UHGV virus genome: UHGV-0140400
Source of the DNA: a virus
Direction: 5' to 3' (one strand)
DNA: 18,486 nt
Below the pieces are notes generated by a model. It had not been told where the DNA came from. It saw only the letters and a list, made by a program, of their open reading frames with translations, and ran no database searches. How positions within the stretch are numbered: position 1 is the stretch's first letter; each line of letters opens with the position of its first letter. A program made the position numbers and the translations under genes. Below are positions 815-18,454 of the stretch, piece by piece.

Positions 815-1249
815 ATGGCAAATGTAAATGAATTATTAAACAAATATTCTAACGGTGGCGCAAAATTTGAATACGACAATGAAAAAGAAAGAGAATATAT
901 CAAATTAGGTGAATTGGATATGTCAAAAACATACCCTATTGAAGCGTTATTCATCAATACGAAAGGTAAATTTGGTGACCAAGGTGTCATCATTAGTGGT
1001 GACTACATTGTCAACTTACCTAATCACTTAACAGAAATGATTGAAGAAATGCGACAAGATAGTGAAATGGTTGACGCAATCAATCAACGTTTATTTGATT
1101 TTGAAATTTATGAATTTGAATCTAAGAAATATAATCGTGTATCACATAGTATTAATTTAGTACCAAGTGAAAAAGCAAAACAAGAGGTTGAACCTGAGCA
1201 ACGTAACCCGTTATATAGTGAGCCTGAACCTGAATCTGAAAAAAAGTAG
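815..1249 (+). CDS. Putative ssDNA-binding-like early protein (144 aa) with an acidic Pro/Glu-rich C-terminus; candidate -1 frameshift extension to 1323
   Basis: AAGGAG SD lies 10 nt upstream of ATG 815. The C-terminal EPEQRNPLYSEPEPESEKK is linker-like. The downstream -1 frame encodes ...ERRNPFARSTKPIDISDEDLPF-stop, which is the canonical SSB C-terminal tip; see finding. Confidence 0.6.
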   Translation: MANVNELLNKYSNGGAKFEYDNEKEREYIKLGELDMSKTYPIEALFINTKGKFGDQGVIISGDYIVNLPNHLTEMIEEMRQDSEMVDAINQRLFDFEIYEFESKKYNRVSHSINLVPSEKAKQEVEPEQRNPLYSEPEPESEKK

Positions 1250-1323
1250 TATATGAGCGACGTAACCCGTTCGCTCGTTCTACTAAACCAATTGATATTA
1301 GTGATGAAGATTTACCATTTTAA
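1240..1323 (+). other. Candidate programmed -1 ribosomal frameshift cassette: slippery A_AAA_AAG (1240..1246), TAG stop, 8-nt spacer, stem-loop gagcga-N10-tcgctc (1255..1276), and -1 frame extension 1246..1323 ending DEDLPF-TAA
   Basis: The heptamer is in the correct X_XXY_YYZ phase relative to the zero frame (gaA AAA AAG TAG). The -1 frame from 1246 reads VVYERRNPFARSTKPIDISDEDLPF then a stop. The hairpin starts 8 nt after the slippery site. Confidence 0.45.
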
Positions 1324-1336
1324 TAAAAACTGAATA

Positions 1337-1360
1337 AAGGGGGCAATGCCTCCTTTTTTA
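1337..1360 (+). terminator. Rho-independent terminator after the SSB-like gene
   Basis: aagggggc-aat-gcctcctt forms an 8-bp stem with one G-U pair, followed by TTTTTT. Confidence 0.6.
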
Positions 1361-1589: not shown

Positions 1590-1835
1590 ATGTTTGGTAC
1601 AATCGTTACAATAGGATTATGTTTATATGGTATAATTGCTTTAATACTTGTTTCAATCGTTAATTATAAAAGGAGTGATTACATGAATTTGATTAAAGCA
1701 TATTATAATATTGTTAACGCTCTCAATGATTACGATTTAACAAAAGAACAAAGAGATAAATTAGAAAATGCTTTATTTGAAATTACGCATATTCTTAATG
1801 ATTTAGAAAGTGAGGGAAAATATTTTGATAATTAA
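1590..1835 (+). CDS. Hypothetical small membrane protein (81 aa, N-terminal transmembrane helix)
   Basis: The N-terminus FGTIVTIGLCLYGIIALILVSIV is hydrophobic. A strong internal SD (AAGGAGTGA) plus ATG 1683 in the same frame could give a separate 51-aa soluble product. Confidence 0.45.
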   Translation: MFGTIVTIGLCLYGIIALILVSIVNYKRSDYMNLIKAYYNIVNALNDYDLTKEQRDKLENALFEITHILNDLESEGKYFDN

Positions 1836-1842
1836 ACATCAA

Positions 1843-3054
1843 ATGAAATTACATTTAAATGAATTGGTTGATTGGGCGTGGCGTAATGGTATAACATCTG
1901 AAAAGTTTCACTCAAATAATGGTTCATATGTAATATTTGACCATAGTGCAGTAGTAGAAACCTATATTATAAACAAAAATGATTTATTTAATGTTATAGA
2001 AGAAATTGAAATCACATTAAATACACCGATTGACTATTTCCTAGAGAAAGATATGTACGGAAATTATCGTGAACATCAAAATATTGCTATTAAGGATTTA
2101 TTATTTTTAAATACAACATCAGATATTTGGTTAATTAATGATGATGATTCACATATATTGATTTATAAAGACGGAAAACTCATTGATGAATATATGTATC
2201 ATCAATTTGAATATGAAGCTAATCAGAATAAACATATTTACCCAAATAATAAAGCAAGTGGAACGTACCCACATAAAACAGAACAAGACGTCACACCACC
2301 AAAAAAACAACCTGATACAAAACCCCTACCACCTGAAGATAATACACCAAAAGTGAGAACCATTAAAACATTAAATGGTACAGTGATGAAAGATTATACA
2401 CCCGTTTCATCAATACAATATGTTAAATCTGTTGGAATCATTGGTGACAGTGTGGGTAAAGGCGCGCATGCTTCATATAACTTTGGTGATTACATCAAAG
2501 AAAAAACAGGTGCAAAAATTCAAAACTTATCAGTAAGCAGTGCTACAATGAGTGAAGTTAAAGACAATAATATATTAAATCAAGCTAAACAACTCAAAGA
2601 TAATGAATTAGTGATTATACAGGGTACTGATGATGATTGGTTGTTTAATTCAAATGCAGGTGTTGAAGTAGGTAATAAACTTACTGATACAAAAACATAT
2701 ATCGGTGCATTTTATAAGGTTGTAGAAACGGTTAAAGAAAATAACCCAAAAGCTAAAATCGTTGTAATTACACCAACGAAACAAGCTAAAATTGATGATA
2801 CAGGAAAAGTTATAAGACGTGATACAGACAAGAATAAAAAAGGTTACACATTAAAAACTTATGTTGATTCACAAGTGAAAGCAACTAAAGATTTAGGATT
2901 AGCATTATATAATGCTTATGATGATTCATTAATTAATCCTTATGATGAAAAATTTAGACAATCGTCTATGAAAGACGGTTTACACCCAACAAAATGGGGT
3001 CATGAAATGATGTATTATCGCATTGTAGAAACATATCATAAAAATTTTGATTGA
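1843..3054 (+). CDS. SGNH/GDSL-family hydrolase (esterase/lipase-like) fused to an N-terminal domain of unknown function via a Pro/Lys-rich linker
   Basis: The C-terminal half has the GDS(x) block IIGDSVGKG, then QGTDDDW, then DGLHPT (DxxH catalytic pair), matching the SGNH hydrolase blocks. The linker is TPPKKQPDTKPLPPEDNTPK. The track starts at GTG 1810. ATG 1843 lies 8 nt after the stop of the upstream gene (translational coupling); TTG 1825 is also possible. TGA stop at 3052..3054. Confidence 0.65.
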   Translation: MKLHLNELVDWAWRNGITSEKFHSNNGSYVIFDHSAVVETYIINKNDLFNVIEEIEITLNTPIDYFLEKDMYGNYREHQNIAIKDLLFLNTTSDIWLINDDDSHILIYKDGKLIDEYMYHQFEYEANQNKHIYPNNKASGTYPHKTEQDVTPPKKQPDTKPLPPEDNTPKVRTIKTLNGTVMKDYTPVSSIQYVKSVGIIGDSVGKGAHASYNFGDYIKEKTGAKIQNLSVSSATMSEVKDNNILNQAKQLKDNELVIIQGTDDDWLFNSNAGVEVGNKLTDTKTYIGAFYKVVETVKENNPKAKIVVITPTKQAKIDDTGKVIRRDTDKNKKGYTLKTYVDSQVKATKDLGLALYNAYDDSLINPYDEKFRQSSMKDGLHPTKWGHEMMYYRIVETYHKNFD

Positions 3055-3064
3055 GGTGTAGACA

Positions 3065-3568
3065 ATGAAAAGAGGTAACAAAAGTAATCGCATTGCACGT
3101 TCAAATGCTTTTAGAGAATCAACATCAAAAAAACAATCAACCTATGAACGTGACGGATTTGTTTTTTTATTTGATGATGAAGAATTACAAAAAGAATATA
3201 TACATGAGTATAATTACTTTAATAATCTATTTGTAGAAAAAGGAAAAGTTAAATTACCTAAACCAAAAAAGATTGGTTACAATGATGCAAAAAGTTTAGT
3301 CAGTGGTAAGAATCAAGAAAAATTGACTAATATAGAAAATGTATATAAACAACTGGATTATGATTGGGAACAAAAAGGTAATATGCACAAACGTCACCTA
3401 TTCCAAGAATCAGTCAAAGAAAATGATGGTTCACAAGAAATATCACACTTTATTAAATCAACGGAAAAGCTATTTGAAGAACTTGCAGAAGCAACGAAAG
3501 TAGCAGATATTGTCAATAAAAAACAAGTTAAATATAACGTGGTTTATTACGTCAGACAGGTAGGTTAA
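3065..3568 (+). CDS. Hypothetical basic protein (167 aa); speculative terminal-protein or DNA-binding candidate
   Basis: A GAGGTG SD lies 6 nt before ATG 3065. The N-terminus is Lys/Arg-rich (MKRGNKSNRIARSNAFRESTSKKQ). The gene sits in the replication module upstream of the ATPase and polymerase. No motif evidence. Confidence 0.45.
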   Translation: MKRGNKSNRIARSNAFRESTSKKQSTYERDGFVFLFDDEELQKEYIHEYNYFNNLFVEKGKVKLPKPKKIGYNDAKSLVSGKNQEKLTNIENVYKQLDYDWEQKGNMHKRHLFQESVKENDGSQEISHFIKSTEKLFEELAEATKVADIVNKKQVKYNVVYYVRQVG

Positions 3569-18303: not shown

Positions 18304-18454
18304 AAAAACTTTTTATCAATAATCCATTACATATTTTTAAATGTATTTTTTAATTGACCTTTCACTCAAAATTTTTGTCGCTACGTGCTCAAATTCTGTT
18401 CTCGTTTCTGGGTGGGGGTGGGGTGAAGTACCAAAAAAAATTTCCTTAATATTT
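18304..18454. repeat. Right inverted terminal repeat (151 bp)
   Basis: It is the exact reverse complement of 33..183 and includes gggtgggggtggggtg at 18411..18426. Confidence 0.9.

Follow-up and report, generated by a model that had tools for sequence, protein, structure and literature searches.

The window analysed here, an 18,486-nucleotide stretch presented as the virus genome UHGV-0140400, is an Andhravirus genome, and its virus is a Staphylococcus picovirus; positions 815–1340, used as a query, were 100% identical to vB_ScaM-V1SC05. All features described below lie on the plus strand. [quoted passage not shown] Its N-domain (residues ~20–124) is probably OB-like, and the linker is disordered from residue ~124 onwards. 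In a 169-aa product obtained by fusing the ORF to the downstream −1 frame, pLDDT is below 50 at residues 124–169. A Pfam scan of this fused protein returned no match at E ≤ 1, PF00436 (SSB family) included, and the only family match was the PHROG 378 'SSB' profile (1e-11), which covers residues 2–169. The gene product is best explained as the phage's OB-like ssDNA-binding protein, with DNA binding as a predicted activity.

Read in the −1 frame from position 1246, the DNA continues as VVYERRNPFARSTKPIDISDEDLPF and then TAA TAA (1246–1323 up to the first stop codon), and this extension contains no ATG, GTG or TTG of its own. It ends in D-E-D-L-P-F (1303–1320; 1303–1323 with the stop), an SSB C-terminal (SSB-Ct) tip of the D-D-D-[IL]-P-F type that forms the very C-terminus of the −1 product, is preceded by a disordered linker and occurs in the −1 frame only. 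The host SsbA ends in DNPFANANGPIDISDDDLPF, followed by its stop codon. The Andhra-type tail agrees with staphylococcal SsbA at 19 of its 20 C-terminal residues and at up to 52 of 60 nucleotides. The tail is in frame in Andhra gp03 and in Pontiff, both of which carry eight adenines (A8) instead of the seven (A7) of the window at the junction between the two frames.

Homology to these in-frame tails and to staphylococcal SsbA excludes a chance ORF, and the sequence identifies the tail as genuine coding sequence and a real SSB C-terminal module. The likeness to host SsbA spans its 20 C-terminal residues and is not limited to the hexapeptide that the original prediction had recognised. Independent initiation of the tail is excluded by the lack of a start codon, so it could be expressed only as a fusion. 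The pN/pS ratio is 0.56 in the tail frame versus 1.76 and 1.46 in the other frames. A 26-aa ORF in frame 0 (1253–1333), considered as a conserved element, was discarded, as it is interrupted in other haplotypes and has pN/pS above 1. A phmmer search of the tail against PDB sequences gave no match. A hairpin with a T-run resembling an intrinsic terminator (1336–1357) is located 3′ of the tail's stop, and not 3′ of the stop of the 144-aa ORF. Gene callers and published records end the gene at 130–146 aa and leave out ~80 nt of conserved coding sequence.

The junction itself consists of an A7 homopolymer tract (1239–1245) whose length varies among relatives, with A8 placing the tail in frame and A7 placing it in −1. 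Overlapping this tract is the slippery heptamer A_AAA_AAG (1240–1246), in X_XXY_YYZ phase on the codons GAA AAA AAG. The zero-frame TAG stop (1247–1249) follows directly 3′ of the heptamer, and GTAG is invariant across all haplotypes. Among bacterial −1 heptamers, A_AAA_AAG is the one most prone to shifting where tRNA-Lys(UUU) reads AAG, and stops adjoining slippery runs stimulate shifting. All A7-state relatives keep the heptamer, P0076 included, in which a GAA-to-GGA change has cut the run to A6. Both P0076 and P0079 have this A6 homopolymer (GGA AAA AAG) and retain the heptamer and the −1 layout, a pattern in keeping with slippage by the ribosome and not by the polymerase.

The heptamer alone is not rare, because another in-phase A_AAA_AAG occurs at 3265, without an obvious role; this second site also led us to reject genome-wide avoidance of the in-phase heptamer as support. 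For AAAAAAGTAG, one occurrence was observed versus 0.13 expected. The original prediction had held that the coincidence of features at the junction was very unlikely to be due to chance. This stands for the tail, which is homologous to Andhra gp03 and SsbA, but not for the phase of the heptamer, the adjoining stop and the −1 position of the tail. On the sequence, these three are not independent evidence, because all of them arise once a single A is taken out of GAA AAA AAA GTA G, the A8 sequence that Andhra and Pontiff carry. In the window, no SD-like element was found within 30 nt upstream of the heptamer. GAGG(T) stands 9–10 nt upstream in short-linker relatives and in most 129-aa relatives, which is the spacing of the SD-like element of dnaX.

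Downstream of the heptamer, an RNA hairpin is predicted at 1245–1284, with an outer stem (1245–1249/1280–1284) and an inner 10-bp bulged stem (1253–1262/1268–1278) around a loop at 1263–1267. The 6-bp stem noticed originally (1255–1260/1271–1276) is part of this larger structure. The inner stem lies 6 nt and the GC-rich core 8 nt from the heptamer, matching the canonical spacing of 6–8 nt. The minimum free energy is −16.8 kcal/mol (z = −4.1), and none of 200 dinucleotide shuffles folded as well. Stability also exceeded that of synonymous recodings for the window type (p = 0.003), L026 (p < 0.003), and L042 and L048 (p ~0.03), and P0083 forms a hairpin at the same place from unrelated sequence (p < 0.003 under the same null). 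Under this null, the hairpin was not significant in the Andhra/PSU3, St134 and P0076 haplotypes, and the nearest in-frame sister clade has no hairpin there. The hairpin is made of the rare codons GAG (11%) and CCG (5%), and almost every haplotype retains its core. There is weak covariation, seen at 2 of 10 pairs, a level that 37 of 500 shuffles also reached.

The region also contains a direct repeat (copy 1, 1182–1212; copy 2, 1241–1271), whose cores encode E-Q-R-N-P-L in frame 0 (1196–1212) and E-R-R-N-P-F in the −1 frame (1255–1271). Its 59-nt spacing had been read as a possible duplication. The spacing is 60 minus 1, that is, an in-phase peptide repeat (EQRNPL/ERRNPF) broken by a one-base frame offset. 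This peptide repeat is present in many relatives and absent from short-linker forms, and an origin by assembly duplication was rejected on these grounds. All of the features described by the original prediction (ORF end, heptamer, stop, stem, −1 frame and repeat) are present at the positions it gave.

Among relatives, A7 is the natural majority state. When proteins were clustered at 90% identity, 68 clusters ended in [EG]KK followed by a stop versus 2 of the in-frame A8 type, and A7 is likewise the majority in Illumina metagenome contigs. The clade is monophyletic and has three deep branches, between which N-domain dS is 1.1–1.9; each of them contains the −1 layout. P0083, the most divergent member, keeps GAA AAA AAG TAG, and its tail is strongly diverged but open (VDKNHRNPFSHATGSELENDDLPF, then a stop). 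Of 20 distinct A7 tail haplotypes, 16 are intact; indels in A7 tails come in multiples of three, and conserved residues show synonymous changes. Comparison with homologues, which had been proposed as a check, revealed a heptamer–stop–hairpin layout conserved in most relatives. The indel origin put forward at the same time as an alternative was right as well; there are relatives that carry the tail in frame through A8 (Andhra, Pontiff, L025, L032 and P0002).

The A7/A8 polymorphism has already been published (Bari et al., bioRxiv 10.1101/776245). In that study, A8 phages with a full-length SSB resist the Nhi defence, while A7 phages with a 'truncated' SSB are sensitive, JBug18 and Pike (A7) fully so. 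There, A7 was taken to be no more than a truncation that an indel had produced. No spontaneous Nhi-escape mutants of JBug18 were obtained from ~1e10 pfu, and the isolation hosts were Nhi+ RP62A for A8 phages and LM1680 for A7 phages. The window allele is A7 of the JBug18/Pike type, with an identical tail peptide. Since A7 phages are sensitive and A8 phages resistant, any full-length protein produced from A7 is functionally not equivalent to that of A8. Bari et al. (bioRxiv 10.1101/776245) make no mention of frameshifting, and neither they nor a 2026 review (PMC12904381) discuss the slippery heptamer, the hairpin, how A7 dominates in nature or how the out-of-frame tail is conserved. A literature search returned no relevant work on phage SSB genes that undergo frameshifting, and the papers searched contained no proteomic or reporter evidence of the 169-aa product in A7 phages. 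New here are the A7 majority, the occurrence in three branches, the intact tails and their lack of a start, the hairpin, and the upstream GAGG in many relatives.

The anatomy of the site, its conservation and the predicted hairpin suggest that −1 ribosomal frameshifting yields a minor, tip-bearing isoform, a proposal that we take as the best explanation, though with no more than about even confidence. In the zero frame, translation would end at TAG and give the 144-aa protein without a C-terminal tip. In a minor share of translation events, the pair of tRNA-Lys that occupies AAA-AAG would slip back by one base at A_AAA_AAG, helped by the hungry stop codon and the hairpin 6–8 nt downstream. Translation in the −1 frame would then produce a 169-aa isoform that gains the disordered linker and a tail closely copying that of host SsbA (...RNPF...PIDISDEDLPF). 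The phage output would be mostly tipless SSB with a set fraction of tip-bearing SSB, which could capture host proteins that interact with SSB or tune how it binds DNA itself. The one-base expansion to A8, as in Andhra and Pontiff, would represent a genetic 'locked-ON' form, and published data link A8 to Nhi resistance. The slippage itself, its level and the role of the tip are inferred.

The main rival explanation, a real possibility although on the whole a rather doubtful one, is a genomic ON/OFF indel switch and nothing more, whereby full-length SSB comes from A8 genomes, A7 genomes yield nothing beyond the truncated form, and slippage, if it occurs, is incidental noise. A7 tails would stay intact because lineages pass periodically through A8, where Nhi-like defences, for example, select for the tail, and because recombination exchanges tails. 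The clear phenotype of the A7/A8 difference and the different isolation hosts (RP62A, Nhi+, versus LM1680) accord with such a switch, as does the fact that heptamer, stop and frame all follow from a single A deletion. Three near-identical A7/A8 pairs (Pontiff versus L027/L043, L025/L041 versus L040, and P0002 versus the window type) point to recent genomic switching, which a pure indel-switch model explains too. Other in-frame 'fixes' exist, namely a 138-aa type and a deletion between the two repeat copies in P0015, which fuses the tail in frame. Tail dS is below N-domain dS in several pairs, consistent with module exchange. The tip has also decayed in the 129-aa group, where it was lost at least twice, by a deletion in L146 and by a TGA nonsense mutation with Pro substitutions in L163–165.

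By contrast, the very low frequency of A8 (2 of ~70 clusters) means that selection confined to A8 phases would be weak, and the failure to recover JBug18 Nhi-escapers is contrary to frequent, productive switching from A7 to A8. Moreover, a switch does not predict a hairpin more stable than synonymous recodings, the independent hairpin of P0083, GAGG at a dnaX-like spacing, or retention of the heptamer at A6.

Transcriptional slippage, in which RNA polymerase would add an A on the A7 template to give A8 mRNA and full-length protein in frame, seems unlikely. The two frames meet precisely at a homopolymeric A-run, slippage by polymerase or ribosome would yield the same protein, and the comparisons that speak for expression of the tail do not tell the two mechanisms apart. 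However, efficient slippage by bacterial RNA polymerase usually needs runs of 9 or more A/T, and the A7 of the window falls below this. Furthermore, P0076 and P0079 keep the layout with only A6, a conserved structure lies downstream at the spacing of ribosomal frameshift sites, and an in-phase stop and SD-like element are irrelevant to a polymerase.

We also considered A6 as a third natural state. The S-CoN_Ph28–35 record series has A6 in every member, and its long A/T runs are one base short elsewhere too. Otherwise, A6 occurs only in two single metagenome protein clusters (P0017 and P0027), for which one contig, L151, was examined and is A6. Outside P0017 and P0027, A6 is thus tied to one record series with a systematic homopolymer deficit, and we rejected it as a natural state. 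Finally, the artefact against which the original prediction had warned, either a homopolymer miscall of a true A8 genome or a mis-assembled duplication of the 59-bp segment, is highly improbable: homopolymer miscalls do occur in this record group, as the S-CoN_Ph28–35 series shows, but at least 6 laboratories have recorded A7, in at least 8 isolates, and dozens of Illumina metagenome and Logan contigs carry it, JBug18 and Pike (A7) were sequenced from the same sample and in the same MiSeq run as Pontiff (A8), at 400–2559×, and differ from it in phenotype, and the repeat is an in-phase peptide repeat in many relatives that is absent in short-linker forms.

Returning to ribosomal frameshifting, we tentatively suggest a broader reading, on which we place somewhat less than even confidence. 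Most Andhraviruses may deliberately hold a host-mimicking tail one base out of frame, with a dnaX-type cassette fixing the proportion of tip-bearing to tipless SSB at a low level. A8 would then be an override that floods the cell with tip-bearing SSB and defeats the Nhi nuclease-helicase. The 'truncated SSB' would be a recoded two-isoform gene, and the dose of the SSB-Ct mimic a tunable axis of phage–host conflict. If the slip is real, the Nhi-sensitivity determinant now called truncated SSB needs reinterpretation, and the retention of a 'broken'-looking gene in ~95% of the wild genomes of the clade would be explained. It would be, to our knowledge, the first case in which recoding controls what share of a phage replication protein carries a mimic of the host SSB C-terminus. 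The locus would also offer a compact, genetically tractable model, with an 18-kb phage whose host is established and a defence whose read-out is known, in which the dose of the SSB-Ct tip can be related to replication, host-factor recruitment and SSB-triggered defence sensing (Nhi, Hachiman and retron Eco8).

Among the closest known systems is that of Andhra gp03 and the 'truncated SSB' of JBug18 and Pike (Bari et al., bioRxiv 10.1101/776245), which is the same gene with the same polymorphism as the window. Bacterial SsbA shares the plan of a disordered linker and an acidic tip, D-[DE]-D-[LI]-P-F, which in the phage protein would follow a putative OB-like domain. Homopolymer contingency loci are similar in that a coding homopolymer differs in length between close relatives and toggles a C-terminal module; unlike in such loci, published escape attempts failed here, and the OFF state bears features of a translational recoding site. 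In T7 10A/10B, lambda G/GT and tail-chaperone homologues, as proposed here, a minor longer isoform arises by a −1 shift near the end of the ORF, in a layout conserved across relatives and at a ratio that the site sets. Those are structural or assembly proteins, whereas here a host-derived SSB tail would be placed on an early replication protein.

The tau/gamma arrangement of Escherichia coli dnaX, to which the original prediction had likened the locus, has the identical in-phase A_AAA_AAG and a stem-loop ~6 nt downstream. The SD-like GAGG ~10 nt upstream is shared by many relatives of the window phage but not by the window. In both systems, two isoforms would differ by the C-terminal protein-interaction module of a replication protein, as judged for the phage from its sequence. 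The likeness holds for the heptamer and for the layout of the C-terminal module, but the polarity is reversed: the dnaX shift truncates the product (gamma), whereas the phage shift, with the zero-frame stop adjoining the heptamer, would extend it, in a Firmicute host and in an SSB gene rather than that of a clamp-loader subunit.

The SSB gene (815-1249, + strand; 144 aa) ends in TCT GAA AAA AAG TAG. On the same strand, its A-run comprises seven residues (A7; 1239-1245) and carries the heptamer A_AAA_AAG (1240-1246) in X_XXY_YYZ phase, directly followed by the zero-frame TAG stop (1247-1249). From 1246, the -1 frame reads VVYERRNPFARSTKPIDISDEDLPF and then TAA TAA. These elements agree with the original prediction, as does a direct repeat (1182-1212 and 1241-1271, spacing 59), and the observation is confirmed. 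The tail frame contains no ATG, GTG or TTG and no ORF is listed there for the window, so the tail can be produced only as a fusion. At 1336-1357 (+ strand), a hairpin and T-run resembling a terminator lie 3' of the stop of the tail, not of that of the 144-aa ORF. The slippery site (1240-1249, AAAAAAGTAG) is 90% complementary to CTCCTTTTTT at 1350-1359, which lies 100 nt further 3' in the terminator T-run (inverted repeat I3); long-range pairing between the two is conceivable.

The placement of the motif had been judged very unlikely to arise by chance, but its components are not independent. Deleting one A from GAA AAA AAA GTA G automatically produces the heptamer phase, the adjoining TAG and the -1 tail, which are thus one event and not three independent proofs of programmed frameshifting. 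A second in-phase A_AAA_AAG (3265-3271, CCA AAA AAG ATT) lies inside an ORF at 3065-3568 (+ strand), so the heptamer by itself is not special for this genome.

Within the queried interval (815-1340), Staphylococcus phage vB_ScaM-V1SC05 matches the window without a single difference (100% identity), and other Andhravirus genomes show 93-99.8% identity. Andhravirus belongs to the Rountreeviridae, phi29-like, protein-primed picoviruses infecting coagulase-negative staphylococci. In relatives, the ORF is annotated as 'single-stranded DNA-binding protein' and corresponds to gp03 of phage Andhra. Positions 18304-18439 match the reverse complement of left-end sequence, as seen through Ph29; an inverted terminal repeat of this kind is what a linear, protein-primed phi29-like genome should have, and the window accordingly resembles a complete genome. 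A 414-aa ORF at 1810-3054 (+ strand) is probably the counterpart of the gene two downstream of SSB in contig L148 (partial call, 409 aa), which matches the GDSL-lipase family PF13472; if so, this would be an unusual enzyme for early genes.

Scanning host ssb ends with a degenerate pattern in one genome per species, we found chromosomal ssb genes that terminate in NPFA-x4-PIDISDDDLPF and a stop in Staphylococcus, Macrococcus and other Bacillales. Staphylococcal SsbA terminates in DNPFANANGPIDISDDDLPF. The Andhra-type phage tail, RNPFAHANGPIDISDDDLPF, which likewise runs to the stop, shares 19 of its 20 residues with this end (as many as 52 of 60 nt), and the window variant, RNPFARSTKPIDISDEDLPF, shares 15 of 20 (our count). 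PHROG 378 (SSB) aligned with residues 2-169 of the fused product, up to the profile end. In the AlphaFold model of cluster P0002, the natural form of the window haplotype with eight A residues (A8), the N-domain folds as beta1-3/alpha/beta4-5 (pLDDT 80-90) and residues 124-169 are disordered. Acidic tails are known from the bacterial SSB C-terminus (SSB-Ct), T7 gp2.5 and T4 gp32. The phage tip may dock host SSB partners, autoinhibit DNA binding, or evade or trigger defences. The NPFANANG-coding stretch of host ssb, CCAUUUGCAAAUGCAAAUGG (for example, L092 from S. hominis and L059 from S. caprae), has its own palindromic hairpin (dinucleotide-shuffle z down to -3.8), unrelated to the phage hairpin described below.

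What varies among relatives at this site is how many A residues the run has. Andhra, Pontiff, metagenome contigs L025/L041 and L032, and Logan contig L148 (P0002) are A8; their layout, GAA AAA AAA GTA G, places the tail in frame, and their proteins measure 155-173 aa. A7 is found in the window, V1SC05, Pike, JBug18, BESEP3, SeAlphi, St134, PSU3 and most metagenome contigs, with the tail in -1 and the heptamer followed at once by TAG. All members of the GenBank record series S-CoN_Ph28-35 (for example, L152, OR354852.1) are A6. However, these records run one base under the window at the 1239 A-run, at 1354 (T6 to T5), 4848 (A8 to A7) and 8039 (A7 to A6). In addition, frameshifts riddle one member, and the genes of Ph35 are fragmented, at 73 features in 18 kb. 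The series therefore probably carries homopolymer sequencing errors, and we treated its A6 calls as unreliable.

Among 119 homologous protein clusters (90% identity, from ~5.8 billion proteins), 68 show the A7 state, ending in [EG]KK and a stop, and two (P0002 and P0025) are in-frame A8 types. The two outcomes between which homologues had been expected to decide, a conserved heptamer, stop and hairpin layout or an in-frame tip indicating an indel, both occur. In P0015 (one cluster; L149/L150), the tail is fused in frame through a deletion between direct repeats (EQRNP...ERRNPF) that removed the A-run, a third way, alongside A8 and slippage, of obtaining an SSB with the tip. Two non-GenBank clusters (P0017 and P0027) have an A6-type stop at the end, and the single contig examined (L151) is A6. 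In a neighbour-joining (NJ) tree of the N-domain, the A-run clade is monophyletic with three deep branches, all A7 (dS between them 1.1-1.9), and in-frame variants are scattered tips inside its crown group. In every sister clade the acidic tip is in frame, ending in QRNPFDTNDDL[AP]F or GRAFDNDENLAF. The most divergent member, P0083 (65% N-domain identity), keeps GAA AAA AAG TAG and an open, strongly diverged tail, VDKNHRNPFSHATGSELENDDLPF; in P0076 and P0079 (GGA AAA AAG TAG), a substitution cuts the run to A6, and the heptamer and -1 layout remain. The main rival to recoding, a purely genomic indel switch without meaningful frameshifting, accounts for recent A7/A8 pairs but leaves the 68:2 dominance of A7 with intact tails unexplained.

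Selection on the out-of-frame tail was assessed in an initial set of 10 distinct A7 tails of full length (78 nt). The pN/pS ratio was 0.56 in the tail frame, whereas the two remaining frames gave 1.76 and 1.46; variable columns per codon position numbered 9, 10 and 16. Invariant N, F, A, I and D residues show synonymous variants, and length differences are multiples of three. A larger contig set gave 20 distinct A7 tail haplotypes, 16 of them intact. The four defective ones all belong to the 129-aa group of relatives and go back to two or more events: L146 lost the tip through a 25-nt deletion, while L163-L165 show a GGA to TGA nonsense change, subsequent tip decay (LPF to LTF or LSF) and one missing Asp. 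Heptamer and hairpin remain intact in all of these contigs. Such losses, for which an indel switch also accounts, show the tip to be dispensable in some lineages; since decay is soon visible once constraint is lifted, intactness elsewhere is meaningful.

A more extensive hairpin (1245-1284, + strand; -16.8 kcal/mol, z = -4.1, 0 of 200 shuffles as stable) is predicted around the stem-loop originally noticed, which forms its core; the inner stem begins 6 nt and the GC-rich core 8 nt downstream of the heptamer. The core, GAGCGACG-UAACC-CG(U)UCGCUC, occurs in nearly all haplotypes (MFE -9 to -18 kcal/mol). Against a synonymous null, in which the peptide was fixed and codons were redrawn from this phage's usage, the hairpin was more stable than expected in the window type (p=0.003), L026 (p<0.003), L042 (0.03) and L048 (0.03), as was an 11-bp hairpin of unrelated sequence at the same offset in P0083 (p<0.003). 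It was not significant in the Andhra/PSU3 type, St134 or P0076, is lost in A8 contig L032 and is absent from the closest in-frame sister clade. Its stem uses rare codons (GAG, 11% of Glu codons; CCG, 5% of Pro codons), and covariation is weak (compensatory changes in 2 of 10 pairs; score reached by 37 of 500 shuffles). Short-linker and most 129-aa relatives (L010, L026-L030, L042-L048, L145) also carry GAGG(T) 9-10 nt 5' of the heptamer, the spacing of the Shine-Dalgarno (SD)-like element in dnaX. It consists of a rare GAG codon and a next codon that is always G-initial, though its amino acid differs (V, E, A or G). GAGG(T) is absent from P0083, L147 and the window's long-linker allele, where the repeat insertion displaced it. 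An indel switch leaves the hairpin and SD-like features unexplained.

Full-length SSB has a published phenotype. Andhra and Pontiff, whose SSB is full-length, are resistant to Nhi, a nuclease-helicase of S. epidermidis (SERP2475); JBug18 and Pike, whose SSB is 'truncated', are sensitive; and JBug18 recombinants that acquired Andhra nt 1302-1362 are resistant (Bari et al., bioRxiv 10.1101/776245). This span covers the A-run and the first 18 tail codons. An indel switch accounts for this phenotype, but not for the missing spontaneous A8 escapers: none could be recovered from ~1e10 pfu of JBug18, and ten of ten resistant recombinants gained the Andhra VDNE and HANG codons plus the extra A (Bari et al., bioRxiv 10.1101/776245). 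Resistance may therefore stem from the restored frame, from the sequence of the tail or from both. Because A7 phages are Nhi-sensitive, any full-length protein of theirs is insufficient for protection or wrong in sequence. The A8 phages were isolated on Nhi+ RP62A and the A7 phages on LM1680 (GenBank host fields and genome announcement). Bari et al. (bioRxiv 10.1101/776245) make no reference to a slippery site or to recoding, and a 2026 review (PMC12904381) is likewise silent on both.

Transcriptional slippage would yield the same protein, but is disfavoured by the short run, the existence of an A6 variant and the structure downstream of the site. A sequencing or assembly artefact is excluded, since two A7 phages (JBug18 and Pike) and an A8 phage (Pontiff) share both the wastewater sample of origin and the MiSeq run (400-2559x), and the A7/A8 difference is genuine.

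The best-supported reading of these sequence patterns is a -1 ribosomal frameshift at A_AAA_AAG. Slippage would produce a minor 169-aa isoform bearing the host-like SSB tail, and zero-frame termination the major 144-aa protein without the tip. A8 would be a genetic locked-ON variant, whose in-phase A_AAA_AAA would give ...KKSR and a stop on a -1 slip; both genotypes could thus make both isoforms, in reciprocal ratios. To our knowledge, staphylococci decode AAG by tRNA-Lys(UUU) only. The A-run polymorphism at the SSB locus is already published; new is that a phage SSB gene carries a candidate -1 site of the dnaX type, whose payload is a putative host SSB-Ct mimic. The original tau/gamma-style, two-isoform interpretation is partly supported. 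As in dnaX, the signal would combine heptamer, hairpin and SD-like element, with an interaction module on one isoform only; unlike in dnaX, the shift would extend the protein, the polarity of T7 10A/10B and lambda G/GT.
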